NCBI GenBank assembly: GCA_020633495.1
Contig: JACKDR010000001.1
Coordinates: forward strand, 118,105-182,104
Reading direction: 5' to 3'
Length of the DNA stretch: 64,000 bases
DNA from: Kofleriaceae bacterium
GTDB taxonomy: Bacteria > Myxococcota_A > Polyangia > Haliangiales > Haliangiaceae
The translations under genes were made by a program, and so were the position numbers. Positions 4,369 through 52,936 of this stretch are shown piece by piece. Position 1 is the stretch's first letter. Each line of letters opens with the position of its first letter. The notes beneath the pieces were generated by a model. The model had not been told where the DNA came from. It saw nothing but the letters and a program-made list of their open reading frames with translations, and ran no database searches.

Positions 4369-4512
4369 GCCGCTCGGGGCCGCGCCCCTGGCCGCGCGAC
4401 CAGGGGCGGGGCGACCTGGCGACGGGTGCGATGGCGCTCGACGGGGCTGCCCCCGGCCGATACCGTGGGTCCCGGTACCGTGGCGTCGAGCTCTCTCCCC
4501 CGCATCCAGGAC

Positions 4513-7500
4513 ATGCCGCTGCCCGGGCTGACGCTGCGCGAGCGCCTCGGCGCCGGCAGCATGGGGATCGTGTTCCGCGCCTACGACGAGCAGCGCGGCG
4601 TCGACGTCGCCCTCAAGTGGTTGCCGCGCGCCGACGGCGTCGCGCTGTCGCGCTTCAAGCAGGAGTTCCGGGCCCTCGCCGACCTGCTGCACCCCAACCT
4701 GCTGCCGCTGTACGAGCTGCACTGCGTCGCCGGGACGTGGTTCTTCACGATGCCGCTGATCGACGCGACGTCGTTCCTGGGCTGGGTCCGGCCCGGCGGC
4801 GACGACGAGGTCGACGCGCCCGGCGGCGACGCCACCGGCACCAGCGACGGCTGGGTCGCCACCACGGTGACCTCGAGCGACCCGCGGGCGCACGTCGCGC
4901 CGCCGCGCCCGGCCGGCCGGACGCTCGACGTCGCGCGCCTGCGGCAGGCGGTGCCCCAGCTGATCGAGGGCGTCGCGGCGCTGCACCGCGCCGGCAAGCT
5001 GCACCGCGACCTCAAGCCGGCCAACGTCCTGATCGATCCCCACGGTCACCTCTACGTCTCCGACTTCGGCCTGGTCTTCGATCCCGCCGACGGCGGCCTC
5101 GATCGCGAGCTGGTGGTGGGCACGCCGGCGTACATGTCCCCGGAGCAGGCCGAGGGCTTGCCGCTCGACGAGGCCAGCGACTGGTACGCGGTGGGCACGA
5201 TGCTGTTCGAGGCGCTCACCGGCGAGCGCCCGTTCCTCGGCGACGTCGCCGAGCTGCGCGAGCAGCGCCGCCTGTTCGCCGCGCCTGCCGTGCGCGAGCT
5301 CGCGCCCGAGCTGCCCGCCGAGCTCGACGACCTGATCGAGCTGGTCGACGCCCTGCTGCAGCGCGATCCGCGCGACCGCCCGACCGGCGCGACCCTGCGC
5401 GACCGCCTCGGCGCGCCGGCGGCCGCGGCGGCCCCGACGACGCCCGAGGCCGGCGACGCGCCGTTCGTCGGCCGCCGCGCCGAGCTCGCCGCGCTGCACC
5501 GGGCGCTCGCCGACCGGCGCGACGGCACCGTGGCGGTGCTGCTCGACGGCGCCTCCGGCATGGGCAAGAGCGCGCTGCTGCACGCCTTCCTCGATCAGGC
5601 CGCCGCCGCCGGCGCGCTGGTGGTCGCCGGGCGCTGCTACCAGCGCGAGTCGGTGCCGTACAAGGCGCTCGACGGCGTCGTCGACGCGCTGACCGCGCAC
5701 CTGCGCGACCTCGCGCCCGCGCAGCTGCCGGCGCTGCCGGCGCCGGCGCGCGCCGCGCTGTGCCGGCTGTTCCCGGTGCTGCGCCAGGTGCCGTGGCCGA
5801 CGGCGACCGCACGCGCCGGCACCGACGACGACGCGACGCCGCAGCGGATCCTGCGCCGCGCCACCACCGGCTTCCGCCAGCTGGTCGCCGACCTGGCGGC
5901 GCGCCGGCCGCTGATCATCGCGGTCGACGACCTCCAGTGGGGCGACGTCGACAGCGTCGGCTTCTTCCTCGAGCTGCTGCAGCTGCCGGCCCACGCCGGC
6001 GTCTTGCTGATCGCGTGCCACCGCCGCGAGGACGCCGACGCCACGCCGCTGCGCGGGCCGCTGCGCGCGGCCGCCGCCGAGCTGGCGCGCCCGGACGTCG
6101 TCCGCGCCGTCGCGCTCGAGCCGCTGGCACCCGCCGAGGTCGCCACGCTGGTCCGCCGCCTCGCCGTCGTCGAGCTCGGCGACGACCAGCTCGCCGCGCT
6201 GATCCGGGAGGCCGGCGGCAGCCCGCTGTTCGCCGGCGAGCTGGCGCGGGTCGGCGCCGCCGTGCTCGGCGGCGCCCGGCTCGACGAGCTCAGCGCCGCC
6301 CGGGTCGCGACCCTGCCGGCGCCGGCGCGGGCGCTGCTCACGGCGATCGCCGTCGCGGGGACGTCGATCGACCTCGAGACCGCGAGCCGCGCCGCCGCGG
6401 TCGCCGATCCCACCGCGGCCACCGCGCTCGACGTCGCGCGCCTGATCCGCGGGCGCGCCGCCGACGGCGGCCGCATCGTCGAGTGCTACCACGACCGGAT
6501 CCGCGAGACCGTGACCGCGCGGCTCGACGCCGGCGCGCGGGTCGGCGTCCACCGCGCCCTGGCCGACGCGCTCGAGGCCACCGGCGCCGCCGATCCGCAG
6601 GCGCTGGTCGCGCACCGCCTCGGCGCCGGCGATCGCGCCGCCGCCGCCGGCCACGCCCGGGTCGCCGCCGCGCAGGCCCGCGACGCCCTCGCGTTCCACC
6701 GCGCCGCCGACTACTACCGCCTGGCCCGCGAGCTCGGCGACGTCGACGCGGCCGAGGCACGACGCCTGCGCGCGCTCGAGGCCGACATGCTGGCGAACGC
6801 CGGCTCGCTGGCCGCCGCCGGCCGCGCCTACCTCGACGCCGCGCACGACGCCGCCGGCGACGACGCGATCGTGCGCCGCGCCCGCGCCGTCGAGGCCACG
6901 CTGCAGGCGGGCCACCTGGAGGCGGCGCTCGCGATGGCCCGCCCGCTGCGGCGCGGCCTGGGCCTGCGCCTGCCGCCGACCGGGTGGCGCGCGCTCGCCG
7001 AGGTCGTCGCGCGACGCGTGTGGCTGCGCGGCCGCGGCATGCGCTACACGCCGCGCCGCGCCGATCAGCTGCCGCCGCGCGCGCTGCTGCGCCACGATCT
7101 GAGCTGGACCCTGGCGTCGGCGATGGCGATGTACGATCCGATCGTCGGCCGCGCCATGCAGCTGCGCTGCGCCCAGGACGCGCTGCGCCTCGGCGAGCCG
7201 GTCCGGGTGGCGCGGGCGCGGATGCTGCTCGCCGCCGCGCGGTCGTCGGACGGCGCCCACACCTGGCCCGAGATCAAGGCGACCCTCGGCGAGCTCGAGC
7301 CGCTGATCGCGGTGGCCGGCACCGGCTACCTGCGGGGCCTGCTGCACACCACCCACGCCGTCGCGGCCAACACCGTCGCGCGCTGGGATCTCGGCGTCGA
7401 GCACGCGGCCCGCGCCGAGCAGCTCCTCGACGGCGTCCCCGAGGGCGCGTGGGCGGCGGCGATCTCGCGGTCGTTCCACGCCAACGCGCTGGCGATGCTG

Positions 7501-8258
7501 GGCCGGCTCCGCGACCTCGGCGCCTACCTGCAGCAGGAGCTCCACGACGCCGAGTGGCGGGGCGACCGGGTGTCGCCGTGGATGCTGCGCACCCAGCGCG
7601 GCAACGTCCACTGGCTGGCGATCGACCAGCCGGCCGAGGCGCGCCGCCAGTACGCGCTGGATCCCGAGCCCGCCGCGGGGCGCAGCGAGCTGCCGCTCGC
7701 GCACCACTACAAGGTCCTGGGCGTCACCGCGAGCCACCTCTACGAGGACGACGCGGCGGCGGCGTGGCGCAGCGTCGACGCCAGCTGGCGGCGCATGTCG
7801 CGCTCGCTGATGGTCCACATCCAGGTGTTCGTGATCGACATGCAGACGCTGCGCGCGCGCGCCCCTCGCCGCCGCGGCCGCCGGCGCTGCGGGCGTGACG
7901 CCGGCGCGGGCGCGGGCGATCGTCGCCGAGGCGATCGCCGCGCTGACCCGCGCCCGCGCGCCGCTGGCCGACGCCTGGAGCGCCGCGCTGCGCGGCAACC
8001 TGGCCCAGCTCGACGGCGAGCGCGCCGGCGCCGCGACCTGGCTGCAGACCGCCGCCGCCGGGTTCGCCCGCCGCGCTCGGGCTCGAGCTGCCGGCGCGCG
8101 CCGCGCGGCTGCACGCCGGCGTGCTGCGCACCGACCGCGCCGGCGACGCCCTGCGCGACGCCGCGCTCGCCGCGCTGCGCGCCGAGGACGTGCGCCGGCC
8201 GATCCGGCTCGCCGCGGTGTTCTCGCCGCTGATCCTGCGCGACGTCGCGCGCGGCTAG
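4513..8258 (+). CDS. Ser/Thr protein kinase fused to AAA/STAND-like ATPase and TPR-like C-terminal region; C-terminus needs two +1 frameshifts (possible pseudogene or assembly indels)
   Basis: ATG 4513 (MPLPGLTLRERLGAGSMGIVFRA) begins a kinase domain (HRDLKPANVLI, DFGL, PAYMSPE). A P-loop (GASGMGKSALL) follows, then about 700 aa of helical repeats. Frame 1 is credible to about 7860. The sequence then continues in frame 2 (...AIVAEAIAALTRARAPLADAW...) and in frame 3 from about 8060 (LGLELPARAARLHAGVL...LILRDVARG*), with stop TAG at 8256-8258. The first shift lies in a GCGCGCGCGCGC tract at 7851-7861. Confidence 0.6.
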
Positions 8259-11532: not shown

Positions 11533-13442
11533 TCACGCCCGCGCGTCGGCGCCGCCGTGGCGACGCACGAGCGCGAGGATGTCGTCGCCGAAGCGCTCGA
11601 TCTTGGCCGGGCCGAGCCCGGGGATCCGCGCCAGGGCCTCACGGGTCGCCGGCCGCAGCCGGTCGATCGCGGTGATGACGCGCTGCTGGAACACCATGTA
11701 CGACTTCCACTGCAGCTTGCGCGCCATGGTCCGGCGGTAGCGATCGAGCTCGCGCGCGACGTCGCTGGTGCGGGCCCGCGCGCCACGCGCGCGGTGCGGG
11801 GCGCGCGCGCCGCGCCGACCGCGCCGACGCCGCGGGCCTCGGCGGCGCGGGCGTCCTCGGCGCGGACCGGCTTGCCGGCCAGCCACACCGTCGGGTACTT
11901 GCGGCCGCGGCGCTCGAGGCGGCGCGCCGCGATCAGCGCCTCGATGGTCGCGACGATCGCGGCCTCGTCGTGATCGCGCAGCCGGCCGTACTCGGGCAGC
12001 TGCAGCAGGCCGCCCTGCGACAGCGACTTGGCGCGGCTGCCGCGCAGCGCCCGCGCCAGGTTGCCCTTGCCCACCGGCCGGCGCAGGCGGCCGACCGCGT
12101 CGAGGATGATCTGCCGGACGTCGTCGCCCAGCGGCGCCGCGGCGACGGCCGCCGCCGGCGCCTCGAGCGCGTCGGCGAGGACGTCGGGCTCGGCGCAGGC
12201 GTCGCACCGGCCGCACGCGGCGTGGTCGTCGCGGCCGGTGAAGTGCGCGCACAAGAGGACCTGGCGGCACCGCGTGGCCCGGGCGTAGCGCTCGACCGCG
12301 GCCAGCGCGTCCTCGGTGCGCTGCGCGACCGCGGCGCTGGTCGACTTGCCGCTCTGCAAGCGACGCTGGGTCATCAGATCGCCGGGCCCGAACAGCAGCA
12401 GGCACGCGGCCGGATCGCCGTCGCGGCCGGCGCGCCCGGCCTCCTGGTAGTAGGCCTCGAGGCTGCCCGGGGTCTGGAAGTGGACGATCAGGCGCACGTC
12501 GCCGTGGTCGATGCCCATGCCGAACGCGTTGGTCGCGACCAGCACCCGGGTCCGGCCCATCGCGAACGCGGTGTGGGCGCGCTCGCGGGCCAGCGCGGTG
12601 CGGCCGGCGTGGTAGTAGCCGACCGCGAACCCGGCCGACTTGAGCGCGTCGGCCACCAGCTCGGTCTTCTTGCGGGTGCTGCAGTAGATGATGGCGCGGC
12701 CGGCGCCGGCCCCGGCGCGGGCCCGCAGCCCGGCCTGCTCGCACGCCGCGATCACCGCCGCGATCCGGGCGCTGTCGGCGCCGAGGTGGCGGACCGCGAA
12801 GCGCAGGTTGGGCCGCGCGAAGTCGCCGCGCACGATCGTCGGCGCCCGCAGCCGCAGCGACGCGACGATCTCGTCCATGACCCGCGGCGTCGCGGTGGCG
12901 GTCAGCGCGATCGTCGGGACGTCGACGACGTCGCGCAGCTCGTGCAGCCGCAGGTACTCGGGCCGGAAGTCGTGGCCCCACTGGCTCAGGCAGTGGGCCT
13001 CGTCGATCGCCAGCAGCGCGATCGGCACCCGGGTCAGCATGCGCTGGAAGCTGGCCAGCGCGGCGCGCTCCGGCGACACGTAGAGCAGCGCCAGCTCGCC
13101 GGCGAGGAACCGCGCGATCACGGCGCGCTGCTCGTCGTCGTCCTGGTGGCTGTGGATCGCCGCGGCGGCGACGCCGCGGCCGCACAGCGCCGCGACCTGG
13201 TCGTTCATCAGCGCGATCAGTGGCGACACGACGATCGTCGTGCCGCGCCCGGCGGCGAACGCGGTCACCGCCGGGACCTGGAAGCACAGCGACTTGCCGG
13301 CGCCGGTCGGCAGCAGCACCGCGGCGTCGCCGCCGGCCAGCACGGCGTCGACCGCGGCGCCCTGGCCGGGCCGGAAGTCGGCGTGGCCGAAGGTGTCGCG
13401 CAGGGTGCGCCGCGCGTCGACCGCCGGGACGACCTCGATCAT
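11533..13442 (-). CDS. recQ: ATP-dependent DNA helicase RecQ; HRDC domain lies in a different frame (frameshift near 11785-11800)
   Basis: The helicase motifs are present (LLPTGAGKSLCFQ, DEAHCLSQWGHDFRP, TATAT, RQC Zn-finger CGRCDAC). The frame 11358..13442 decays into junk after ...KPVRAEDARAAEARG. The HRDC domain (ARELDRYRRTMARKLQWKSYMVFQQ...IPGLGPAKIERFGDDILALV) with its stop is in ORF 11533..13458. The shift maps to a GGCGCGCGCGCC tract. Confidence 0.7.
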
Positions 13443-16271: not shown

Positions 16272-17940
16272 TCAGAATGGTGCCGGCACCTCGACCTCGA
16301 CGCGCCGCCCGGTGTGGGGGTGGGCGAACGCGAGCGCCTCGGCGTGCAGGCGCAGCCGGGCGCCGTCGCGGCCGTACAGACGATCGCCCTCGATCGGCGC
16401 GCCCAGGCCGCGCGGGTGGGCGGCGTGGACCCGCAGCTGGTGGGTGCGGCCGGTGTGCGGCCACAGCGCGACCCGGGTCCGGCCCGGCGCCCGTGCCAGC
16501 ACCCGCCAGGTCGTGATCGCGCGCTTGCCGTGGACGTCGTCGACGATCTGGCGGGGCCGGTCGTCGAGATCCACGCGCAGCGGCAGCGCGATCTCGCCGG
16601 CGTCACCGGCGACCTCGCCGTCGAGCCACGCGACGTAGCGCTTGGTGATCTCGCGGCGCGCGAAGCCCCGCTGCAGGGCCGCGTGGGTGTCGGCGTCGAG
16701 CGCGACCAGCATCACGCCCGAGGTGTCGAGGTCGAGGCGGTGCACGATCATCGGGCCGCCGGCGTCGGGGTAGCGAGCGCGCAGCCGGGTCTGCACCGAG
16801 TCGCGCAGCTGGGCGTGGCGCCCCGGCACCGACAGCAGGCCGCACGGCTTGTCGACGACCAGCAGCCAGCGGTCGGCGTGGATCACCCGGGGCGCGTCGG
16901 CGGGCACCGGCTCGGCGCCGAACAGCGGCGCCGGCTCGGCGTCGAGGCCGTCGAGCATGTGGGCGAGGATCGGGCCGCACTTGCCGCGGCACGCCGGGTA
17001 GAACTGGCCGGCGTGGCGACCGCCGGCCGGCGGCGGCGCGCCCCACCACAGCTCGGCGAGCGCCAGCGGCCGCAGCCCGTGCCGGTAGGCGTGCGCGAGC
17101 AGCTTGGGCGCGGCGCAGTCGCCAGCGCCGCCGGGCGGCTCGTCGGGGGCGAAGACGTCGCGCAGGGCCCGGTGCGCGCGCGCGCGCGCTCGGCACCGCG
17201 TAGGTGTCGTAGATGCCGTGCAGGAGCTGCCGCGACGCGCGCGGCGCGCCGCGCCGCCACGTCGTCGGCGGCGGCGTCGAGGTCGGCGACCCGGGCGGCC
17301 AGCGCGCGCGCGCCTCGAGGTGCGCGGCGTCGAGCCGGCGACGCTCGGCGGTGTCAGCGCGGCTGGCCTGGTCGAGGGCGTGGCGGGCGTCGGCGGCCGC
17401 GGCGCCGTCGTCGTCGCCGAGCGCGCGCCGCGACGCACGCCGGTCGGCGCGACGGGCCAGGTGGCGCGCCCGCATCGTCGCGACCGCGGCGGCGTGGTCG
17501 GCGTCGAGCGCGGCCAGCGCGGCGCGCGCCGCGACCGCGGCGGCGCCGTCGACGAGCGCGGCGTGGTCGGCGGCCAGCTCGGCCAGCTCTGGCCTCGCCG
17601 GCCGGCCAGAACGCGTCGCGCGCCGCGACGTCGAACGCGGCGGCACGAAGCCGTCGACCTGCCAGCGGCCGGCGAGCATGCCGGAGAAGCCGGCGAGGTA
17701 GCCGACCCGGCCGTCGCGCGCCGCGACCACCAGGACACCGAACATCTTGCCGCCGCCGGGCGCCGCCAGCGCCGCGCCGACCTCGGCGCCGCCGAGCCGA
17801 CCGTCGCGCAGCCGCGCGATCAGGTCGTCGGCGGCGCGCCGCGCCAGCGGGTGCGGCGCGCCGGTCGCGAACGGGCTGGGCAGCCGCGCCGGCGCCGCGG
17901 CGAGCGCGGGCGGTGGATCGAGGTACGTCACGAGGTCCAT
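16272..17940 (-). CDS. RluA-family pseudouridine synthase with N-terminal extension; interrupted by at least 3 frameshifts
   Basis: The N-terminus (MDLVTYLDPP...GKMFGVLVVAARDGRVGYLAGFSGMLAGRWQVDGFVPP) and the middle (ELAELAADHAALV...RRRLDAAHLEARARW, then LLHGIYDTYAVP) lie in ORF 16603..18495. The catalytic domain (HRLDLDTSGVMLVA...RVLARAPGRTRVALWPHTGRTHQLRVH) lies in ORF 16272..17738. Two of the junctions sit in (GC)8 at 17175-17192 and (GC)6 at 17303-17316. Confidence 0.6.
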
Positions 17941-29823: not shown

Positions 29824-30456
29824 CTACCGCCGGGCGCCGGCGCGGCCGCGCAGCTGGCGGAGCCGGGTGTGCTCCTCGCGCTCGCGCTCGTCGAGGGCGC
29901 GGCCGATCGCGGCGATGCGGTCGCGCAGCGCCGGGGCGACGCGCTGCTCGAGGGTGTGCAGCTGCCGCGAGGTGCGCGCCAGGGCCTGGCCGAGCGAGCG
30001 GACGTGGAGCTCGCGCGACGCGGCGTCGAGCAGGACCGCGGCGAGCCGCTCGAACCGGTTGGCGGCCTCGAACAGCGCCGGGCCGGTCGCGCCCGGCGCG
30101 GTGCCGCGCGCGGCCAGGCCGCGGTCCCACACCGGCAGCTCGGCGAGGCGCGGCACGGTCACGCCCCAGACCCGCGTCACCTCGACGTCGACGACCAGCT
30201 CGCGCGACGGCCAGCCGGTCGCGGCCACCGCGCCGGCGCCGTCGATCGCGAGGGCGTCGAGCTCGGCGCGGTACGCGGCCGCGGCGGCGTCGCCGATGAC
30301 GCGGCGGGCGTCGGCCGCCGGCTGGGCCAGCGGGAACAGCTCGCGGACCAGCGCCTCGCGCTTGCGGCGCAGCAGCGCCGCGCCCTTGGCGACGCGCGCC
30401 AGCAGGCGCCGGCTGCGCAGCAGCTCGGCCCGGGTCGGCGCCGCCCGCGCCCTCAC
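29824..30456 (-). CDS. atpD: V/A-type ATP synthase subunit D
   Basis: GTG 30456 is preceded by GGGGAGGG. The N-terminus VRARAARPTRAELLRSRRLLARVAKGAALLRRKREAL is typical of subunit D. The start overlaps the B stop as GTGA. Confidence 0.8.
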   Translation of the reverse strand: MRARAAPTRAELLRSRRLLARVAKGAALLRRKREALVRELFPLAQPAADARRVIGDAAAAAYRAELDALAIDGAGAVAATGWPSRELVVDVEVTRVWGVTVPRLAELPVWDRGLAARGTAPGATGPALFEAANRFERLAAVLLDAASRELHVRSLGQALARTSRQLHTLEQRVAPALRDRIAAIGRALDEREREEHTRLRQLRGRAGARR

Positions 30457-31841
30457 GCGCCCTCCCCGGCCGCGGCGCCGGGCCGACGCGCCCAGGTGTC
30501 GTCGTCGAGGCGCTCGAGATCGTCGCGCGGCAGCGACTCGAGCAGGCGCCAGCCGGCCGCGATCGTGTCGGCGATCGTCCGCCGGGTCGCGCCCTGGCCG
30601 ACCAGCTCGCGCTCGAACCGGGTCGCGAAGCCGAGGGCGCGACGATCCGGATCGCTGAGCCCGGCCTCGCCGACGATCGTCGCCATCATCCGGGCCTCGC
30701 GGCCGCGCGCGTAGCTGGCGTACAGCTGGTCGGCCCAGCGCCGGTGCTCGCGCGCGGTCTTGCCGGCGCCGATGCCGGCGTTCATCAGCCGCGACAGCGA
30801 CGGCAGCACGTCGATCGGCGGGAACACGCCCTGGGCGTGCAGCTCGCGCGACAGCACGACCTGGCCCTCGGTGATGTAGCCGGTGAGATCCGGGATCGGG
30901 TGGGTGATGTCGTCGTCGGGCATCGTCAGGATCGGCAGCTGCGTCAGCGAGCCCGCGCGGCCCTGCAGCACGCCGGCGCGCTCGAACAGCGTCGCCAGGT
31001 CGGTGTACATGTAGCCGGGGTAGCCGCGCCGCCCCGGCACCTCGTCGCGCGCCGCCGCGACCTGGCGCAGCGTCTCGCAGTAGTGCGCGACGTCGGCCAT
31101 GACCACGAGGACGTGCATGCCGGCCTCGAAGGCGAGGAACTCGGCCTGGGCCAGCGCGTAGCGCGGCGTCAAGAGCTGCTCGATCGTCGGATCGCGGGTC
31201 TCGTTGAGGTACAGCACGCTGCGCGCCATCGCCGGGCTGTCGCGGAACCGCTCGACGAACAGCCGGGTCTCGCGCGCGGTGATGCCGATCGCGGCGAACA
31301 CCACCGCGAACGGCTCGCCGCCGCCGGCGCGGGCGTGCTCGACGATCTGCGCGGCCAGCTCCAGCGCCGGCAGGCCGGCGCCCGAGAACACCGGCAGCTT
31401 CTGGCCGCGGACCAGCGTATTGAGGCCGTCGATCGCGCTGACCCCGGTCTCGATGACGTCGCCGGGCGGGTGGCGCCGCGCCGGGTTCATCGGCGCGCCC
31501 CACACCGGCCGCAGCGCCTCGCCGATCGGCGCCGGCAGGCCGTCGAGCGGCGCGCCGACGCCGGTGAGCGTGCGCCCCAGCAGATCGCGCCCGACCGGCG
31601 CCTCGGCGACCGCGCCGGTCAGCGTGATCGTCACCCGCGCCGGCGACAGCCCCTGCGGATCCTCGAGGATCTGGATCACCGTGACGCCGTCGCCGGCGTC
31701 GATGACCTGGCCGCGCCGCGCCGGCTGCCCCGGCTGGGTCAGCTCGACGACCTCGCCCATCGCGGCGCCGCGGGCGTCGTCGAGGAACAAGAGCGCGCCG
31801 GCCAGGGCGCGCGCGCCGCGATGGTGGCGGACCGCGATCAC
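30453..31841 (-). CDS. atpB: V/A-type ATP synthase subunit B
   Basis: GTG 31841 is preceded by GGGAGGTG and overlaps the A stop. The sequence is strongly subunit-B-like (GQKLPVFSGAGLP, RGYPGYMYTDLATLFERAG). Confidence 0.85.
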   Translation of the reverse strand: MIAVRHHRGARALAGALLFLDDARGAAMGEVVELTQPGQPARRGQVIDAGDGVTVIQILEDPQGLSPARVTITLTGAVAEAPVGRDLLGRTLTGVGAPLDGLPAPIGEALRPVWGAPMNPARRHPPGDVIETGVSAIDGLNTLVRGQKLPVFSGAGLPALELAAQIVEHARAGGGEPFAVVFAAIGITARETRLFVERFRDSPAMARSVLYLNETRDPTIEQLLTPRYALAQAEFLAFEAGMHVLVVMADVAHYCETLRQVAAARDEVPGRRGYPGYMYTDLATLFERAGVLQGRAGSLTQLPILTMPDDDITHPIPDLTGYITEGQVVLSRELHAQGVFPPIDVLPSLSRLMNAGIGAGKTAREHRRWADQLYASYARGREARMMATIVGEAGLSDPDRRALGFATRFERELVGQGATRRTIADTIAAGWRLLESLPRDDLERLDDDTWARRPGAAAGEGA

Positions 31842-33622
31842 GGGGCACCTCCCGCGGGCCGGCGGTGCAGCGCCGCGATCGCGGCCTCGACCGCGGCGGC
31901 GCGCGCCGGCAGCTCGTCGCCGGGGCCGGTCCGCAGCGCCGCGAACGCGCGCCGCACCGCGACCAGCTCGAGCTCGTCGATCGTGGCGCCGGCGTCGAGC
32001 GCGGCCTCGGCGGCGTCGAGCGTGGCGACCGCGAGCTGCGCCATGCACCCGGTCTTCTCGACCGACGACGACGCGTCGTTGGGGTCGAACGCGCTCTGCC
32101 CCAGCAGGTGCTCGCGCACCATGCGCGCGACCTCGATCGTCGCGCGGTCGCGATCCTGCAGGGCCTCGTGGCCGAGCAGGCCGGCGATCTCGCGCAGCTC
32201 GGCGTCGCGCTGCAGCAGCCCGAGCACGCGCGCGCGCAGCTCGGCCCACGGCACGCCGGCGCGCTCGGTCAGCCACGACGCGGTGGCGTCGACGTACAGC
32301 GAGTAGCTGGTGGCCCAGTCGACCGCCGGGAACTGGCGCTTCTGGGCCAGCGCCGGATCGAGCGCCCACAGCCCGCCCGCGACCCGCAGCGACGCCTGGG
32401 TCACCGGCTCGGCGAAGTCGCCGCCCGGCGGCGACACCGCGCACACCAGCGACACCGCGCCGGTGCGCGCCGGCGTGCCGTGGACGCGGGCCCGGCCGGC
32501 CCGCTCGTAGAGCTGGCCGAGGCGGCTGGCCAGGTGGGTCGGGTAGCCCTCCTCGCCCGGCATCTCCTGCAGCCGCGCCGCGATGTCGCGCAGCGCCTCG
32601 GCCCACCGCGACAGGCTGTCGACCATGACCGCGACCCGGTAGCCCATGTCGCGGTAGTACTCGGCGATCGACACGCCGAGGTAGACCGAAGCCTCGCGCG
32701 CGACCACCGGCATGTTCGAGGTGTTGACGATCAGCACGGTGCGCTCCATGACCGGGCGGCCGGAGCGCGGATCGACCAGGCGCGGGAACTCCTGCACCAC
32801 CTCGGCCATCTCGTTGCCGCGCTCGCCGCAGCCGACGAAGACGACGACGTCGGCGGCGGCGTGGCGGGCCAGGCCGTGCTCGATCACGGTCTTGCCGGTG
32901 CCGAACCCGCCGGGCACCGCGATCGTCCCGCCCTCGGCGAGGGGGAACAGCAGATCAAAGACGCGCTGGCCGGTGACCAGCGGCCGGTCGGCGGGCAGCC
33001 GCTCGGCCACCGGGCGCGGCTGCCGCAACGGCCAGCGCTGGGCCAACCGCACCACCGTGCCGTCGCCGAGGCGGCCGACCGGCTCGTCGACGGTGACGTC
33101 GCCGCCGCGCAGCTCGACGACCTCGCCGCCGGCGCCGGGCGGGACCAGGACGCGGTGCTCGAAGCCCGGCTGCTCCTCGACGACGCCGAGCAGGTCGCCG
33201 GCGGCGACCTGATCGCCGACCGCGGCGCGCGGCTCGAAGCGCCAGCGCCGCGCCGGATCGAGGGTCGGCGCCGCGGCGCCCGGCGCGACGAAGTCGCCGC
33301 TGGCCGCAGCCAGCTCGCGCAGCGGCCGGCCGACGCCGTCGAGGATCGCGCCGAGCAGGCCGGGGCCGAGCGCGACGGTCAGCGGCGCGCCGGTGGCCAC
33401 CACCGGGGCGCCCAGCGCCAGCCCGGTGGTGTCCTCGTAGATCTGCAGCACCGCGGCGTCACCGGTGAACCGGATGATCTCGCCGAGCAGGCCGTGGGCG
33501 CCGACCCGGACCAGCTCGTAGAGCCCGGCGTCGCGCAGCGGCCGGGCCTCGGCGAGCGTGCCGGTGACCCGGGTCAGGACCGCGCCCGGCGTCGCGGTCG
33601 TCGTCGTCGTCGCGCTGGTCAT
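31838..33622 (-). CDS. atpA: V/A-type ATP synthase catalytic subunit A
   Basis: A P-loop GGFGTGKT is present, with GER...E and a conserved C-terminal region. ATG 33622 overlaps the F stop as ATGA. Confidence 0.85.
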   Translation of the reverse strand: MTSATTTTTATPGAVLTRVTGTLAEARPLRDAGLYELVRVGAHGLLGEIIRFTGDAAVLQIYEDTTGLALGAPVVATGAPLTVALGPGLLGAILDGVGRPLRELAAASGDFVAPGAAAPTLDPARRWRFEPRAAVGDQVAAGDLLGVVEEQPGFEHRVLVPPGAGGEVVELRGGDVTVDEPVGRLGDGTVVRLAQRWPLRQPRPVAERLPADRPLVTGQRVFDLLFPLAEGGTIAVPGGFGTGKTVIEHGLARHAAADVVVFVGCGERGNEMAEVVQEFPRLVDPRSGRPVMERTVLIVNTSNMPVVAREASVYLGVSIAEYYRDMGYRVAVMVDSLSRWAEALRDIAARLQEMPGEEGYPTHLASRLGQLYERAGRARVHGTPARTGAVSLVCAVSPPGGDFAEPVTQASLRVAGGLWALDPALAQKRQFPAVDWATSYSLYVDATASWLTERAGVPWAELRARVLGLLQRDAELREIAGLLGHEALQDRDRATIEVARMVREHLLGQSAFDPNDASSSVEKTGCMAQLAVATLDAAEAALDAGATIDELELVAVRRAFAALRTGPGDELPARAAAVEAAIAALHRRPAGGAP

Positions 33623-33951
33623 CGCAACCTCAGGCGGTAGCCGACCGACTGCCGCAGGATCTCCAGCAGCTCCTCCTCGGGCGCCGGCCCGGCCGCGCCG
33701 AGCGCCGGTCCCGGGAACGGCATCAGGATCGGCGTGCCGTCGCGGCGCAGCTGGCGCCGCAGCGGTGCCGGCAGCGCGTCGTAGAGCGCGCGCTCGATCA
33801 GGATCACGCCGCCGTGATCGGCGCGGCGCGCCAGCCGCGTCACCGCCGCCGCCGCCGCCGCGCCGTCGGCGACCTCGGTGCACGCCAGGCCGGCCAGGCC
33901 CAGGCCCAGCGCCGCCGGGCGCCGCGCGATCGCGTGGATCGGCGCCTTCAT
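33619..33951 (-). CDS. atpF: V/A-type ATP synthase subunit F
   Basis: ATG 33951 is preceded by GGGAGG. The protein is 110 aa (MKAPIHAIARRPAALGLGLAGLACTEVADG...GVILIERALYDALP...). The remainder of its long ORF upstream is junk. Confidence 0.7.
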   Translation of the reverse strand: MKAPIHAIARRPAALGLGLAGLACTEVADGAAAAAAVTRLARRADHGGVILIERALYDALPAPLRRQLRRDGTPILMPFPGPALGAAGPAPEEELLEILRQSVGYRLRLR

Positions 33952-34933
33952 CGGCCGCCTCCCATCGCGACCCGCCACGCGGCGCGGCGGACGCGCCGGA
34001 CCTCGGCGCGGCGCCGCAGCACCAGCCACACCACCGCCGCCGGCCCGGCCGGATCGACGACGCGCAGCCGCCGCTGGGTCTCGAGGTGCCAGCGCAGCGC
34101 CGCGCGATCGAGCGCGTCGGCGTCGCCGCCGCGCAGCGCGCCGACCAGCGGCGTGCCGACGAAGACGCCGGCCAGGACGTCGCGCGCGCCCTCGACTGGC
34201 CGGCCGCGGCGGCGCGGAACGCGGCGCGCCCGAGGTGGCCCCGCCCGGCACCATCGCGGCGGCGACGTCGACGTCGCCCCGCGCCGCCAGCATCAGCGCG
34301 GCGCCGGCGTTCTCGACGTCGACGACCTGGGCGACGTGGACCGCCAGCGGCCCGGCCGGGGCGCCGGCGCGGGCCCGCCGCGCGAACGCGCGCGCCATCG
34401 CGTGCTCGGCCGCGTACAGGTCGACCGGCGCGTGCGCCAGCGGCGTCGCCAGCGCCGCGGCCAGCGGGTGACCTCGCCGGCGCAGCCGCGCCACCAGGTC
34501 GGCGGGCGAGGCCGCGGCGGCCAGCTCGCGCAGCTCGGCGTCAGGCAAGCGCGGCGTCGGGATCGCGGCGGCCAGGCGCGCCGCGATCGGCGCGCCGGCG
34601 GCGAGACCGCGGATCAGGGCGCGCAGGGCGCGCCGGTCCTCGTCGTCGAGGATCACCGCCAGCGCGCGCTCGGCGGCGGCGCCGGCGCCGCAGGCCCAGC
34701 GCGCCAGCGCGGTCAGATCGTCGCCGGCGCGGGCCAGCGCGGCGGCCTCGATCGCCCTCGGGCGAGCCGTCGCCGAGGATCGCGCGCGGGAAGCTGGCGC
34801 GATCGAGCGCGGCGACCAGCGCGCCGCGATCGGCGGCGTCGTCGACCGCGCCGAGCGCGTCGTCGTCGACGAGGTGGGTGCCCAGGCCGTGCGCCCGCGC
34901 CGCCACCGCGACCCACGTGCCGGCGCCGGTCAC
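33948..34933 (-). CDS. atpC: V/A-type ATP synthase subunit C (d-type); span not a multiple of 3, at least 2 internal frameshifts
   Basis: GTG 34933 is preceded by GGGGAGGG and overlaps the E stop as GTGA. The N-terminal part (VTGAGTWVAVAARAHGLGTHLVDDDALGAVDDAADRGALVAALDRASFPRAILGD) is in one frame. The middle part (...HAMARAFARRARAG...VDVENAGAALMLAARGD) is in the subunit-F frame. The C-terminus is inferred to end at the TGA overlapping atpF's ATG. Confidence 0.5.
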
Positions 34934-35538
34934 GCCGCGCCCTCCCCGGCCGGCGTCGGCGCCGCGGCGGGCGCCGCCTCGACGCGCAGCCGCGGCCACC
35001 ACCGCGCCAGCAGCGTCGTCAAGCGTCGCGTCGATCGTGACCCGGCCGCCGTCGAGCTCGACGCGCACGCCGGTCGTGACCTCAGGATCGGCGACGACCC
35101 GCAGCGCTGGCGCCCCGGTCGCGGCGAGCCGCGCCTGCACCGCCGCCAGCCGCGCCGGCGCGCACCGGACCTCGCCCGCCGCGCCGCCGGCGCCGCGACC
35201 GCGCCGGCGACCAGCGCGTCGCGCAGCCGCGCCCCGGCGTCGCCGTCGAGCAGCCCCGGCAGCGCCGCCTCGAGCGCGGCGCGGACCCGCGCCAGGGCGG
35301 CGGCCCGCGCGGTCAGGACCTCGGCGTGGACCCGGCGCGCCACCGTCGCCACCGCCGCGTCGGCCTCGGCCTGGCGGCCGATGCGATAGGCCTCGATCTC
35401 GGCGGCGGTGTCGGCGTCCCGGCGCGCCGTCGCGTCGGCGATCAGGCGCGCCGCGTCGACGCGCCCGGCCTCGCGGATCGCGTCGGCGTCGGCCGCGGCC
35501 TCGGCCTCGAGCGCGCGCAGGAGCTCGGCGATCGCCAT
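34930..35538 (-). CDS. atpE: V/A-type ATP synthase subunit E; central ~60 codons in another frame (two compensating shifts)
   Basis: The N-terminus MAIAELLRALEAEAAADADAIREAGRVDAARL... and the C-terminus (...LLARWWPRLRVEAAPAAAPTPAGEGAA*) are in ORF 34930..35538. The conserved middle segment (EVRCAPARLAAVQARL...VRVELDGGRVTIDATLDDAA) is in the frame of ORF 34541..35755. Confidence 0.6.
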   Translation of the reverse strand: MAIAELLRALEAEAAADADAIREAGRVDAARLIADATARRDADTAAEIEAYRIGRQAEADAAVATVARRVHAEVLTARAAALARVRAALEAALPGLLDGDAGARLRDALVAGAVAAPAARRARSGARRRGWRRCRRGSPRPGRQRCGSSPILRSRPACASSSTAAGSRSTRRLTTLLARWWPRLRVEAAPAAAPTPAGEGAA

Positions 35539-35547
35539 GGCGCGACC

Positions 35548-35766
35548 TCAGCCCCCTCGCAGGACGATCAGCACCGCGACGACGAAGCCCAGGATCACCA
35601 TCGTCTCGGGGATGGCGACCAGCAGCACCGCGGTGGTGCGCAGCTCGGGCTTCTCGGCGAGCGCGCCCGCGACCGCCGCGCCGATGCGGGACTGGGCCCA
35701 GGCGGTGGCGAGCGCGCTGCCGGTGATGGCGAGGGCGGCTCCGACGGCGATCCACAGGGCTTCCAT
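35548..35766 (-). CDS. atpK: V/A-type ATP synthase subunit K (proteolipid, c-subunit)
   Basis: ATG 35766 is preceded by GGAGG. The protein MEALWIAVGAALAITGSALATAWAQSRIGAAVAGALAEKPELRTTAVLLVAIPETMVILGFVVAVLIVLRGG is a two-helix hairpin with the conserved Glu. Confidence 0.75.
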   Translation of the reverse strand: MEALWIAVGAALAITGSALATAWAQSRIGAAVAGALAEKPELRTTAVLLVAIPETMVILGFVVAVLIVLRGG

Positions 35767-35776
35767 GACAGGCCTC

Positions 35777-37653
35777 CTAGGGGCTGGCGACCGATCCGGG
35801 GCTCCAGTGGGCGAACGGCTGGTACCGCCCACCGCCCGGACTGAAGAACGTGCCGAAGAACTCCACGTAGTGCAGGCGCAGGACGTGGATCGTCGGGCTG
35901 AACAGCGCGATCGCGAAGTTGACGAGGTGGAACAGCAGCGCGAAGACGACGCCGATCACCGCGCCGCCGAACGCGCCGACCATCCGGTTGGCGACCACCG
36001 CGAGCATCACCGACGCGGTGCCCAGCGCCATGACGCGGGCGTACGACAGGACGTGCCCGACCGTGGTCAGGAGCTCGAGCAGCGCGGTCGCGCCCTCGAG
36101 CGCGATCAGGATCGGGAACGCGACCAGCAGCGCGACGATCGCGGGCGTGAACAGCGCGTGGGGCAGCAGCTCGAAGACGGTCGCCAGCGCCAGCGCGATC
36201 AGCAGGAGCATCAGCGCGGTCAGGCCGCGCCCGGCGGCCTCGCGCGGGTGGCCGCGCCGCGAGATCGCGGACACCACGAGCCCGAGCAGCATGTGGACCA
36301 GGCCGAGCGCGATCGCCAGGCCCAGGAACGGCAGCACCGCGTCCTCGCGGTCGAGCCACAGCGGCCGCATGCCGAACCAGCGCTCGCCGAGGTCGCCGAA
36401 CAGCTCGCCGTAGAGGACGCCGAAGATGATCATGTAGCTGGCGACCGCGGCCGCGATCTTGGCCAGGTCGCGGGCCAGGCCGCGACCCCGGCCCCGCGCG
36501 AACAGGATCGCCGCGATCGTCGCCAGCAACAGGCCGTAGCCGACGTCGCCGACGATGATGCCGAACAGCATCGGGAAGAACACCGCGACGAACGGGGTCG
36601 GGTCGACGCTGCCGTAGCGAGGCAGCGGCAGCATCGCGGTCAGCCGCTCGAACGGCTCGAAGACCCGCGGGTTGGTCAAGACCACCGGCGCCTCGGCGCC
36701 GCGCCAGTGGTCGCGCCCGACGGTCTCGACGACGACGGCGTCGCCGAGGCGGGCGTGCAGCTCGGTGGCGAGCGCGGCGCGGGCCCGCGCCGGCACCCAG
36801 CCCTCGACGACGAACGCGCGCGCGGTCTCGGCCGCGACGCCGCGGGCCTCGAGCGCGAGCAGCTCGTCGTGGAGGCCGCGCCGGGCCCGCACCAGCTCGG
36901 CGCCGACGGCGTCCCGCAGCGCCGTCGCCGCGGCCTCGACCTCGGCGAGCTCGCGCTCGAGCTCGGCCAGGCGCGGCCGCAGCCGCGGCAGCGCGTCGAT
37001 CAGCGGCGCGCCGGCGAGCCCGACCGGCACCGCGGCGCGCTCGACGGGCGCCGGCGAGCAGCCGGTCGACGACGTCGCCGCGGCCCTCCGGGACCAGCAG
37101 CAGCAGCGCCAGCTCGCCGCTGGGCAGGGCGTGCGATCGCAGCTCGCAGGCGCCGTCGAGCGTCCGCTCCAGCGCCTCGCGCAGCCGCGCCAGCGTGCCG
37201 GCGCCGCCGCGCTGCAGCCGCAGCAGGTGGGCCGCGAACCGCCGGTCGACGCGGTCGCCGCCGAGCAGCGCCTCGAGGTCGGCGACCAGCGGCGCCCAGG
37301 GCGCGCAGCGCGTCGCGCTCGTCGGTGAGCGCGCGGGCGCGGCGGTGCAGCCGGCCGGCGTCGCGCGCGTCCGGGCCGCCAGCCGCGCCGCCGCGCGCTG
37401 CGGTCGGCGCGGCGCCGCCGTCGTCGCCGCGCTGCCACGGCACGCCGAGCTCGGCCAGCGCGGTCAGCGCGACCTCGACCCGGGTCAGCACGCGATCGAC
37501 GTCGCGGTGACGACGTCGCTCGGCCGGCGACGCCTGGCGCCGCGGCAGCGCGTCGTCGGGCGGCGGCTCCAGGTGGACGGTGCCCAGATCCTGCAGCGCC
37601 GCGAGCGTGCGCGCGAGGTCGGCCTTGCGCCCCATCAGCCGCACGCGCGTCAT
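35777..37653 (-). CDS. atpI: V/A-type ATP synthase subunit I (a-subunit); N-terminal cytoplasmic domain needs 2 frameshifts (approx 37030-37110)
   Basis: The N-terminus MTRVRLMGRKADLARTLAALQDLGTVHLEPP... begins at ATG 37653. A short segment (SHALPSGELALLLLVPEGRGDVVDRLLAGA) lies in a third frame. The membrane domain, about 450 aa with multiple TM helices, is in ORF 35777..37438. Confidence 0.65.
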
Positions 37654-37661
37654 CTCGATGA

Positions 37662-38021
37662 TCACCCGGCCCCCTCGATCAGCGCGGCGAGCCGGACGGC
37701 GAGCCGGCGGGCCTCGTCGGCGAGCGCGTCGCCGACCAGCGCGTCGTGGCGGCGACGCCCGGTCGCGCCCTCGGCCTCGAGCGCGGCGATCCGCGCGGCG
37801 GTGGCGGCGGCGATGCGATCGTCGACCGCGCGACACGCCGCCAGCAGGAGCCCGGCCCGCGCCCGCTCGGCGTCCTCGACCTCGGCCTGGGCGACCTCGC
37901 GCCGGGTCGCGGCCTCGGCGCGAGCCTCGGCGAGCAGGTGCTCGAGCCGTCGCTCGGTGTCGACGAGCGCCTCGAGGTCGGCCGCCGGTGCGGCCCTCGG
38001 CAGGTGCGCCTGACGGGCCAT
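37662..38021 (-). CDS. V/A-type ATP synthase subunit G/H-like (small coiled-coil stator subunit)
   Basis: The 119-aa all-helical Ala/Glu/Arg-rich protein MARQAHLPRAAPAADLEALVDTERRLEHLLAEARAEAATRREVAQAEVEDAERARAGLL... is the first gene of the operon. The call rests mainly on position. Confidence 0.55.
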   Translation of the reverse strand: MARQAHLPRAAPAADLEALVDTERRLEHLLAEARAEAATRREVAQAEVEDAERARAGLLLAACRAVDDRIAAATAARIAALEAEGATGRRRHDALVGDALADEARRLAVRLAALIEGAG

Positions 38022-47434: not shown

Positions 47435-49222
47435 ATGATCGCCGGGATGCGTCTGATGGTGGTCGAGGGCCCGGACCGCGGCCGCGAGCTCGAGCTGGTC
47501 GAGCCCGGCGGCGCCCTCGGCCGCGCCGACGACTGCGCGATCCGCCTCGGCGACCCGGCGGTCAGTCGCCACCACTGCCGGGTCGTGGTGCACGGCGCGA
47601 CCGCGCGCCTGGTCGACGACGCGAGCACCAACCGGACCCTGGTCAACGACGCGCCGGTGCGCGAGGTCGAGCTGCGGCCCGGCGATCGGATCGCGGTGGG
47701 CCGCACCGTCCTGGTGGTCGCCGGCGCCGCGCCCGCGGTCGCGCCGCGGCCCGCCGCGATCGAGCTGGCGACCGTCGAGCTGGTGACCCGCGCCGGCGGC
47801 GCCGACGATCTGCCGGCGGTGCTGGCCCGCCTCGGCGACGCGCTGCAGCGCGCGACCGACGTCGCCGCCGCCGCGACCGCGGCGTGCCAGGCGGTCGCGA
47901 CCGCGCTCGGCGCCGCGGCGGTGACGCTGGTGCGGCGCCGGGCCGACGGCGACCTCGACGCGATCGCCGCGACCGGCGCCGCGACCGGCGCCGCGGACGG
48001 CGGGGCGGACGGCGCCGCGGACACGACGCCGGGGATCGATCCGCGCGCCGCGATCGATCGCGGCGTCGCCGCGGCCTACGTCCTGGCCGATCGTCACGTC
48101 CTGGTGGCGCCGCTGGCGCCCGCCGACGCGACGGCGCTGGTGCGCGGCGCGCTGATCGCGACGCGCGCCGCGGCGTGGCGCCGTCGCGACCTCGAGCTGG
48201 CGTCGGCGCTGGCGCGGCTGGTCGGCGCCGGCCTCGACGCCCAGGTCGCGCGCGATCGCCTCGATCGCGCCAACCGCTCGCTCGCCGAGCGCCTCGGCGG
48301 CGCGGTGATCGCCGACAGCGACGCGTCGCGCCAGCTCGCCACGCTGATCGCGCGGGTCGGGCCCACCGACACGACCGTGCTGATCACCGGCGAGTCCGGC
48401 GTCGGCAAGGAGCTGGTCGCCGAGGCGGTCCACGCCGCCAGCCCGCGGGCGCGCGGCCCGTTCGTCGCGGTCAACTGCGCGGCGCTGTCCGAGGGCCTGC
48501 TCGAGAGCGAGCTGTTCGGCCACGAGAAGGGCGCGTTCACCGGCGCCGCGGCGCGCCGCGCCGGTCGCCTCGAGCAGGCCGACGGCGGCACGCTGTTCCT
48601 CGACGAGGTCGGCGAGCTCGGCGACGCCGCCCAGGCCAAGCTGCTGCGCGCGCTCGAGGCCCGCCGCTTCGAGCGGGTCGGCGGCGCCCACACCGTCGCC
48701 GTCGACCTGCGGCTGATCGCGGCCACCAACCGCGACCTCGAGGCGATGGTCCACGCCGGCCGGTTCCGTCGCGATCTCTACTACCGGCTGTGCGTGGTGC
48801 GCCTGGCGATCGCGCCGCTGCGCGAGCGCCGCGCCGACGTCGCGCCGCTGGCGCGCCTGTTCGTGGCCCGGTTCGGCGCCGCCACCGGCCGGCCGCGCAC
48901 GCTCGACGACGACGCGCTCGCCGCGCTCGAGGCCCACGACTGGCCCGGCAACGTCCGCGAGCTGCGCAACGTGATCGAGCGGGCGATCGCGCTGGGCGCC
49001 GGCCCGACGATCACCGCGGCCGACGTCGAGCCGCTCGGCGCCCTGGCCGCGGTGGCGCCCGCGACCGGCGACGCGCCGCCGCGATCGCTGCGCGAGCTGG
49101 AGCAGGAGGCGGTGGCGGGCGCGATGAAGGCGGCGCGCGGCAACAAGGCGCGCGCCGCGCAGCTGCTGGGGATCGACCGCACGACGCTGTACAAGAAGCT
49201 GAAGCAGCTCGGGCTCGGCTGA
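47435..49222 (+). CDS. sigma-54-dependent transcriptional activator, FHA-GAF-AAA+-Fis HTH architecture
   Basis: An N-terminal FHA domain is present ([22 protein letters not shown]...NRTLVND). The central sigma-54 interaction domain has [15 protein letters not shown] and the GAFTGA motif. The C-terminal HTH is [21 protein letters not shown] 47435 is in frame. Confidence 0.8.
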
Positions 49223-49370
49223 TCGCGCTCCTCCGCGCGCGCCGCGCGGACCGTCGAGGATCACCACAGGGTGTTGTCGGTGGTGGGGCGCGCCACCGCC
49301 GCGATCCCGAGGCATGACGGCCACTTGCGGATGGCACGCGACGTGATGAAGGGACCGGCCAGGAGGTTCC

Positions 49371-49841
49371 ATGTCCAGATCCATCGTCGCCCTGCTCGTC
49401 TCCACCCTCGTCGCCGTCGCCACCGCGTGCATCCCGCCGTCGCAGACCGGCAACGGCGACGGCGCCGCCCCGCCGTCGTCGTCATCGTCGCGCGGCGGCC
49501 AGGGCGGCGGCTACGCCAGCACCGGCGGCAGCGGCGACCTGTGCCAGCGCGCGTGCCAGCGCTTCGCCGACTGCGGCCTCGACCAGCTCGATCCGTGCGT
49601 GCAGTCGTGCAGCGGCGGCACGATCGCCGCCGACCGGCTCGAGCTGTTCGCGGCCAGCTCGTGCGAGGACCTGCAGTCGTACATGCAGTACGGCGCGCCG
49701 GCCAACCAGACCGGCCAGGGCTGCGCCAGCCACGGCGCCAACGACTGCCCGAACATGGCGGTGTGCTGCAACGGCGACGTCACCACCGGCACGCCCGGCC
49801 AGTGCATCGCCGCGGCGATCTGTTACGCGCCGACGCGGTGA
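49371..49841 (+). CDS. small Cys-rich secreted lipoprotein
   Basis: A signal peptide with lipobox VATACIPP is followed by a Gly/Ser linker and a 12-Cys domain (CQRACQRFADCGLDQLDPCVQSCSGG...CPNMAVCCNG). Confidence 0.5.
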   Translation: MSRSIVALLVSTLVAVATACIPPSQTGNGDGAAPPSSSSSRGGQGGGYASTGGSGDLCQRACQRFADCGLDQLDPCVQSCSGGTIAADRLELFAASSCEDLQSYMQYGAPANQTGQGCASHGANDCPNMAVCCNGDVTTGTPGQCIAAAICYAPTR

Positions 49842-49892
49842 CCGCGGTCGCCGAGGTGACGGCGGTGACGGCGGTGGGCCCGCCGCGCCGGC

Positions 49893-52800: not shown

Positions 52801-52936
52801 CGGGCTCCACGCACGCATCGTAGCCGGCTGCGGCCGCGACGTGCGCGTCGTAGCTCCGCCCAGACTCGCGACCGGGCCCGAGGGTTGCCCGCGCCTGCGA
52901 GACACTCTGTCTCTCCGGCGCGTCAGCGTGGCGCAT
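49893..52936 (-). CDS. Ser/Thr protein kinase - single TM - TPR-repeat domain; frameshift at a (GC)4 tract between the TM and TPR parts
   Basis: The kinase domain (GQGGMGEVYRARD, HRDLKPGNVMI, DFGLAR, GTPAYMAPE, SDVYALAVVL) and a TM helix (LAIGGGVALLAAVAAVAGVALA) are in ORF 51533..53161, with the start taken at ATG 52936. More than 500 aa of TPR-like repeats (ADARDAFARVVAAEPGLAAGHAGLIDALLALGDD...) are in ORF 49893..51797. The junction ELRA|AADARD lies at CTGCGCGCGCC near 51615. Confidence 0.6.

Follow-up and report, generated by a model that had tools for sequence, protein, structure and literature searches.

The 64-kb stretch of DNA that we analysed (the window) carries seven conserved genes with broken coding frames: those of a STAND kinase, recQ, a long RluA-type pseudouridine synthase, subunits C, E and I of a V-ATPase, and a kinase-TPR protein. 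The GC content of the window is 75.7%, and because all six frames are open at such a composition, genes were located by codon-position composition. A GC3-phase HMM detected places where the coding phase changes on one strand without a stop codon. With all frames open at ~76% GC, the output of plain tblastn under relaxed settings could not be read, and for break placement we substituted our own frameshift-aware protein-to-DNA aligner. By combining the HMM, Pfam, homologue alignments and contigs, we counted 18 indel sites in the seven genes. The shifts occur in either direction and by differing amounts, and the coding GC3 (~0.96) is undiminished in all of the shifted segments. Local GC at the breaks is 0.78-0.92, as compared with the window mean of 0.757, and the sites appear to form patches of 200-600 nt at 7.86-8.07, 17.17-17.65, 34.2-34.8, 35.0-35.2 and 37.0-37.4 kb. 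Compensating indel pairs spaced by 24-170 nt are found at 37392/37368, 35195/35023 and 17638/17589.

The window also contains 76 alternating G/C runs of at least 8 nt, three of which reach at least 12 nt (7851-62, 17174-89 and 17302-13). A preliminary description of this DNA had drawn attention to such (GC)n tracts and to conserved genes broken at them. Its tract positions were confirmed to within a few bases, and the frame breaks were recovered by the GC3-phase HMMs, by Pfam and by the frameshift-aware alignments. The (GC)5 runs near 105 and 31806 that it regarded as read through are likewise present, as alternating runs read in frame at 94-120 and 31807-16.

The first of the broken genes encodes a Ser/Thr kinase of the STAND type, with Pfam Pkinase and AAA_16 domains and a helical-repeat C-terminus (4480-8258, forward strand). 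Its start lies somewhere in 4426-4513 and its stop codon, TAG, at 8256-58, and three frames are used in the window. The HMM detected changes of GC3 phase at 7863/64 and 8068/69, corresponding to two +1 shifts at 7862/63 and 8065-68. The interval 7845-8075 had originally been flagged for its (GC)6 tract (7851-7862); the first break does lie at the edge of this tract, but the second has no (GC)n run. Comparison with an independent contig (L087), in which the (GC)6 tract has the same length, shows that 2 nt (CG, 7862-7863 on the forward strand) are missing from the 3' edge of this tract: the window has CTGCGCGCGCGCGC--CCCTC in place of the true CTGCGCGCGCGCGCCGCCCTC (L R A R A A L). The second is a 4-nt tandem duplication of CGCC in the window (8065-8068, forward strand), where the true sequence is GGGTTCGCCGCGCTC. 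In L087, the last 867 aa of the kinase constitute one ORF. The two restored peptides agree with the orthologue P0001, RARAALAA being identical and AAGFAALGL aligning gap-free. P0001, which is 60% identical and comes from MAG GCA_942492525.1, spans both breaks continuously and is the sole database relative of the kinase C-terminus. On the corresponding contig (L085 7659-11461; CALOFI010000004.1 of GCA_942492525.1), the STAND kinase orthologue is called in two pieces, ORFs of 639 aa and 486 aa, and the ~420 nt between them match coding sequence in the window (6243-6868), which suggests a frameshift or an error in GCA_942492525.1 too. The neighbours of the kinase on L085 show no synteny with the window.

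The recQ gene (11533-13442, reverse strand) has its DEAD, Helicase_C, Zn-binding and RQC domains in one frame and its HRDC domain in another, according to both Pfam and the HMM. The break can be placed only to the linker at 11763-11879, a region that contains a (CG)4 run at 11786-93 and a (GC)5 run at 11801-10. A RecQ scan of genome contigs was flooded by conserved RecQ motifs, and the best relatives that it returned were 42-51% identical. A Ser/Thr kinase-TPR gene (49893-52840, reverse strand) is similarly divided: its TPR part is read in a different frame from the kinase and the transmembrane part (Pfam, HMM). Its break at ~51604-51618 overlaps a (GC)4 run (51607-14). The homologue P0016 holds the kinase and TPR halves in one protein, and is too distant for precise break placement.

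The long RluA-family pseudouridine synthase (16272-17940, reverse strand) contains five shifts, at ~17638, ~17589, ~17305-08, ~17235 and ~17171-92, which we placed by alignment to the intact proteins P0002, P0003 and P0005 together with three-frame reading and the HMM. The longest tract of the window, (GC)8 at 17174-17189, is at a +1 shift, and (GC)6 at 17302-17313 is at a -1 shift; a (CG)4 run (17236-17243) adjoins the shift at ~17235 as placed by homologue alignment. At the (GC)8 tract, four homologues conserve Arg-Gly where the window has Ala-Arg repeats in two frames. Because of this conservation, one C has likely been inserted in the window, the true sequence being ...GCGCGCGCGGCGCGC...; without this C, frame and Gly would both be recovered, and an error of this GG to GCG type was verified at 37392. 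If a single base is taken to be missing beside the (GC)6 tract, the homologues align there gap-free. Three of the homologues (P0002, P0003, P0006) carry large lineage-specific tandem peptide-repeat inserts between the N-terminal and catalytic domains, at the position of 17300-17560 in the window. The repeat unit is AVPDTLASSRGS(S/W)E, present ~9 times, in P0002 and NHVAGAPD(T/M)RANA in P0003, and the gene of the window is without inserts. Another homologue, the 865-aa ENA protein P0015, alternates genuine peptide segments with out-of-frame junk rich in Arg, Pro and Ser. We read it as a visible read-through ORF, and hence as the same multi-frameshift problem in another high-GC assembly.

The remaining three broken genes belong to a complete V/A-type ATPase operon (29824-38021, reverse strand), which comprises a small G/H-like gene followed by I, K, E, C, F, A, B and D; upstream, on the opposite strand, lies a GDSL-lipase gene. 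The host is a member of the Haliangiales (Myxococcota). Subunit C (33948-34933, reverse strand) has shifts at ~34745-65, at 34236 (CCC to CC) and at 34199/200 (GGG to GG). In contig L086, both extra bases are present and a continuous ORF of 215 aa results; a (CG)4C run near these shifts (34181-89) is identical in L086 and in the window. In the window, subunit C is split and the reading frame of its N-terminal part continues into subunit F. The deposited protein MCB9558894.1 (345 aa, 'hypothetical'; 33619-34656, reverse strand) is a chimera in which a portion of subunit C, a stretch read out of frame, and subunit F are joined. In the sister MAG H6709_, subunit F is correctly annotated with 110 aa, and the numbering of proteins and locus tags suggests that C and F are separate calls in that assembly. 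Subunit E (34930-35538, reverse strand) is an open ORF that the HMM finds out of frame from ~35024 to 35195, implying a compensating indel pair. It is deposited as MCB9558895.1 (202 aa, 'hypothetical protein'), in which ~57 internal residues are out of frame and which forms a one-member cluster. Subunit I (35777-37665, reverse strand) has shifts at ~37285-312 and ~37044-68, as well as a verified pair, one C gained at 37392 and one lost at 37368/69, that garbles 8 residues. In comparison with contig L107, the loss is at the edge of a (CG)4 run (37362-69), and the gain is a GG to GCG change with an adjacent substitution. The homologues of subunit I are 25-30% identical and too distant for precise placement of its breaks.

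The contigs against which these indels were read were found via exact-protein look-ups of small intact neighbour genes in Logan assemblies of SRA runs, ENA metagenome assemblies and the fragmentary NCBI MAG GCA_020431345.1. A total of 28 contigs from more than 10 samples align to 16,622 nt of the window (26%) at 98.5-100% identity; those that span breaks are 99.6-100% identical to the window, and a few short ones elsewhere are at 98.5-99%. Over this sequence they differ from the window by six indels in total (7862/63, 8065-68, 34199/200, 34236, 37368/69 and 37392). All six lie in broken or garbled genes, and at each of these sites (6/6 covered) the contigs are single ORFs. The contig comparison thus bears on 6 of the 18 indel sites. 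Four of the six verified indels had been predicted beforehand from GC3 phase alone, the other two being the subunit I pair. In intact genes, only scattered substitutions separate the strains.

Several short contigs stop just outside the patches, at 8103, 8157, 35205, 37340, 37430 and 37446. We also observed that ends from different samples coincide or nearly so (twice at 10849, twice at 13283, and at 37430/37446), a sign that the samples may share coverage gaps or graph branch points where GC is extreme. Contig L091 (SRR12358676) matches 48947-49947 at 100% identity except for its first 342 nt, which do not align to the window and could mark either a junction that varies between strains or a chimera of the contig, upstream of the 49371 gene.

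Further searches returned little. Exact look-ups of the 20839-21792 gene, of HxlR and of subunits D and E found nothing on record, and two scans of JGI metagenomes, one with the kinase C-terminus and one with a DNA pattern bridging the (GC)8 tract, gave no matches. Among the hits of protein searches, which were demonstrably incomplete, there was no intact kinase, RecQ or RluA of near-identical sequence from the sister MAG. With Ala/Arg-rich queries, the word-seeded search scored 8000 candidates and returned almost no true relatives; queries of concatenated 'repaired' proteins gave family homologues useful for locating breaks and no near-identical proteins. Partial ORFs at contig ends are apparently unindexed there, the 867-aa ORF of L087 not being returned. 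As the search also missed an exact 72-aa match (subunit K, P0042, a cluster representative), we do not count its negatives as evidence.

Is the association of the breaks with alternating runs real? Seven of the 18 indel sites (~39%) touch a run of at least 8 nt, as compared with 0.5 contacts expected under random placement (calculated for a 16-site version of the census) and 1.9 when matched for local GC (P~1e-4). The association also depends on length: each of the three runs that reach 12 nt or more lies at a break, as compared with 4 of the 66 runs of 8-9 nt. The association is therefore real, although the share is below the 'about half' proposed initially. The other 11 errors are at short C/G homopolymers or in other GC-rich low-complexity sequence. 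Neither did the breaks prove to fall 'exactly' on the runs: at 7862/63 and 37368/69, for which the true sequence is available, the indel is at the edge of the tract and the repeat number is unchanged, contrary to the slip of one repeat unit that had been envisaged.

These data bear directly on the idea that the tracts are unstable in vivo, with a (GC)n run slipping by one unit to create variable or phase-variable genes. (CG)n tracts form Z-DNA and suffer small deletions in bacteria, and the link between breaks and alternating runs, complete for those of at least 12 nt, speaks for such instability. Comparison of tracts in related sequences, which the preliminary description had recommended, tells against it: the (GC)6 at 7851-62 and the (CG)4 at 37362-69 have equal lengths across samples, and the indels next to them lie outside the repeat register. 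Of the 24 alternating runs covered by contigs, 22 are identical including their flanks, and the other two have the same repeat number with an indel at the border. As repeat number is equal in all covered tracts, there is no verified one-unit slip. Moreover, the majority of breaks are away from runs, and the tracts are not commoner than composition predicts, (GC)6 12-mers occurring 5 times where dinucleotide-preserving shuffles give 5.9. recQ, the pseudouridine synthase and the ATPase subunits are not contingency-type genes, and the tracts are located mid-gene or near the 3' end. What would mark phase variation, namely whole-unit repeat variation, over-representation of repeats and contingency-type genes or promoters, was not found here, with the (GC)8 and the second (GC)6 tracts lying outside contig coverage. 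We consider slippage in vivo exceedingly improbable as a general explanation; equal tract lengths across samples, the housekeeping nature of the genes and the compensating pairs 24-170 nt apart all speak against this part of the preliminary description. Contigs cover two of the seven (GC)n-associated breaks, the others being the one in recQ, three of the RluA-like gene and that of the kinase-TPR gene. There is a slender chance that a minority of the uncovered breaks (17174-89, 17302-13, recQ and kinase-TPR) reflect real instability in the length or flanks of Z-DNA-prone tracts, in which case they would represent population heterogeneity that the assembler has frozen into one allele.

A further possibility is that both parts of each gene are expressed through programmed ribosomal frameshifting or other recoding at the breaks. 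Nothing beyond the functional look of both gene halves speaks for it, and its probability is practically negligible: no slippery heptamer is found at the breaks, and the shifts go in both directions by differing amounts. Programmed frameshifting was rejected on the single-frame state of the orthologues, in which no slippery site is conserved, and of the same-species contigs.

More serious is the reading in which the frameshifts are real and strain-specific, that is, the strain represented by the MAG carries true pseudogenes and other strains are intact. The spanning contigs come from other samples (runs SRR15882951, SRR17907852 and SRR23493598), show a few substitutions relative to the window and, strictly, demonstrate an intact allele in the population, in which strain diversity is present. 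Against this, 18 indels in 64 kb would amount to thousands per genome, GC3 is kept at ~0.96 in every shifted segment, and compensating pairs lie only 24-170 nt apart. Over 2.6 kb, the only differences between L107 and the window are +1 and -1 indels 24 nt apart and one adjacent substitution. Such identity makes a biological origin of the pair implausible; it is an error cluster and not divergence. Genome decay would entail relaxed constraint with independent support, and the alleles are intact in all of the other datasets that span a break. The long-read provenance of the assembly is also known, and its completeness is low despite high contiguity. We therefore hold strain-specific pseudogenes to be very unlikely.

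This leaves the origin of the assembly itself. The window is part of a 662,764-bp contig of MAG HK-STAS-MYXO-12 (locus tags H6708_), and more than 15 of its proteins are exact matches to MCB9558877-916 ('MAG: Kofleriaceae bacterium', H6708_). Low completeness in combination with high contiguity is the usual symptom of frameshifted marker genes in a MAG. HK-STAS-MYXO-12, assigned to the Haliangiaceae, consists of 78 contigs totalling 8.16 Mb, the longest of 662,764 bp, with a GC of 0.741 and a CheckM completeness of 80.03%; for the sister MAG HK-STAS-MYXO-13 (H6709_), the longest contig is 304,894 bp and completeness 66.86% (Liu et al., 2021, Microbiome 9:205; PMC8518188). For both, metaFlye 2.4.2 was run on ONT reads with a mean accuracy of 86.7%, after which reads were recruited per bin and combined with Illumina reads in a Unicycler hybrid assembly (PMC8518188). 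The reads behind HK-STAS-MYXO-12 are those of PRJNA648801. ONT errors, which are mainly deletions, are enriched in high-GC reads, homopolymers and dinucleotide repeats (PMC8486125), and long-read errors are known to pseudogenize genes (PMC12007338).

We conclude that the frame breaks are, very probably, residual consensus indel errors of a nanopore-first hybrid metagenome assembly. The long-read origin is error-prone, independent assemblies lack the indels at all six sites that they cover, and the indels lie in homopolymer, repeat or high-GC context and are in excess over substitutions. The occurrence of 18 indels in seven housekeeping or signalling genes within 64 kb, compensating pairs included, also counts for an artefact. 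The 4-nt duplication at 8065-68 counts against it, as it is not the most typical ONT error. A systematic artefact had been one of the two origins offered in the preliminary description. This much is supported by the nanopore-first MAG and by the intact frames in the contigs; its proposed restriction to (GC)n or Z-DNA-prone sequence is not, as 11 of the 18 sites lie elsewhere.

The assembly history suggests how such errors could have arisen. In the GC-extreme patches (0.78-0.92), Illumina coverage may have been too thin to build or polish the sequence, so that the ONT consensus would have been kept uncorrected; the contig ends just short of the patches fit thin Illumina coverage there. This consensus would miscount short C/G homopolymers, and may also miscount at the borders of alternating GC runs (GCGCGCCGCCC to GCGCGCCCC, or GG to GCG), an error beside the run presumably becoming likelier the longer the run. 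Since junctions between a run and an extra C or G would be error-prone in a ~76% GC genome, this model would also account for the length-dependent (GC)n association.

The pattern resembles the errors of R9-era Oxford Nanopore and hybrid assemblies, with indels of 1-4 nt in C/G homopolymers and GC-rich low-complexity sequence (PMC8486125; PMC12007338). It shares with them genes that are split or garbled by compensating pairs, and low CheckM completeness despite long contigs where short-read assemblies of the same organism are intact. Gene-fragmenting indel errors of this sort, in which homopolymers and short repeats are miscounted and polishing does not remove the fault, were reportedly described by Watson and Warr in 2019. 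Unlike the textbook nanopore errors, which concern homopolymers, those in the window have the borders of (GC)n runs as an equally conspicuous hotspot, with every run of at least 12 nt affected. The simple-sequence contingency loci of Haemophilus, Neisseria and Campylobacter, which vary by slipped-strand mispairing, likewise present a short tandem repeat in an ORF at a frame change. In contrast to them, we found no repeat-number polymorphism among samples, the indels are not unit multiples within the tract, the genes are housekeeping ones and many breaks are without any repeat. Small deletions within Z-DNA-forming CG repeats in bacteria are said to have been described by Wang, Christensen and Vasquez in 2006, and the association of alternating CG with small indels is common to both cases. 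However, the tracts of the window have 4-8 units, are of equal length between independent assemblies, and are accompanied by insertions and flanking-base errors too. What we describe is an already-known kind of assembly error and not a biological feature.

The consequences extend to the databases. HK-STAS-MYXO-12 is a public and highly contiguous MAG, and in the region of the window it carries ~1 indel per 3-4 kb, located in GC-extreme patches. In NCBI nr, these indels have already given rise to pseudogenes, to internally garbled proteins and to a chimeric ORF of 345 aa. More generally, when the GC of a genome is very high, errors concentrate at the borders of alternating GC runs to a degree comparable with homopolymers. 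The import for the biology of the organism is small, as no new mechanism is involved, and the value of the finding is practical: before such MAGs are said to be of low completeness, or to show pseudogenes or variation driven by repeats, the claim needs a check against short reads.
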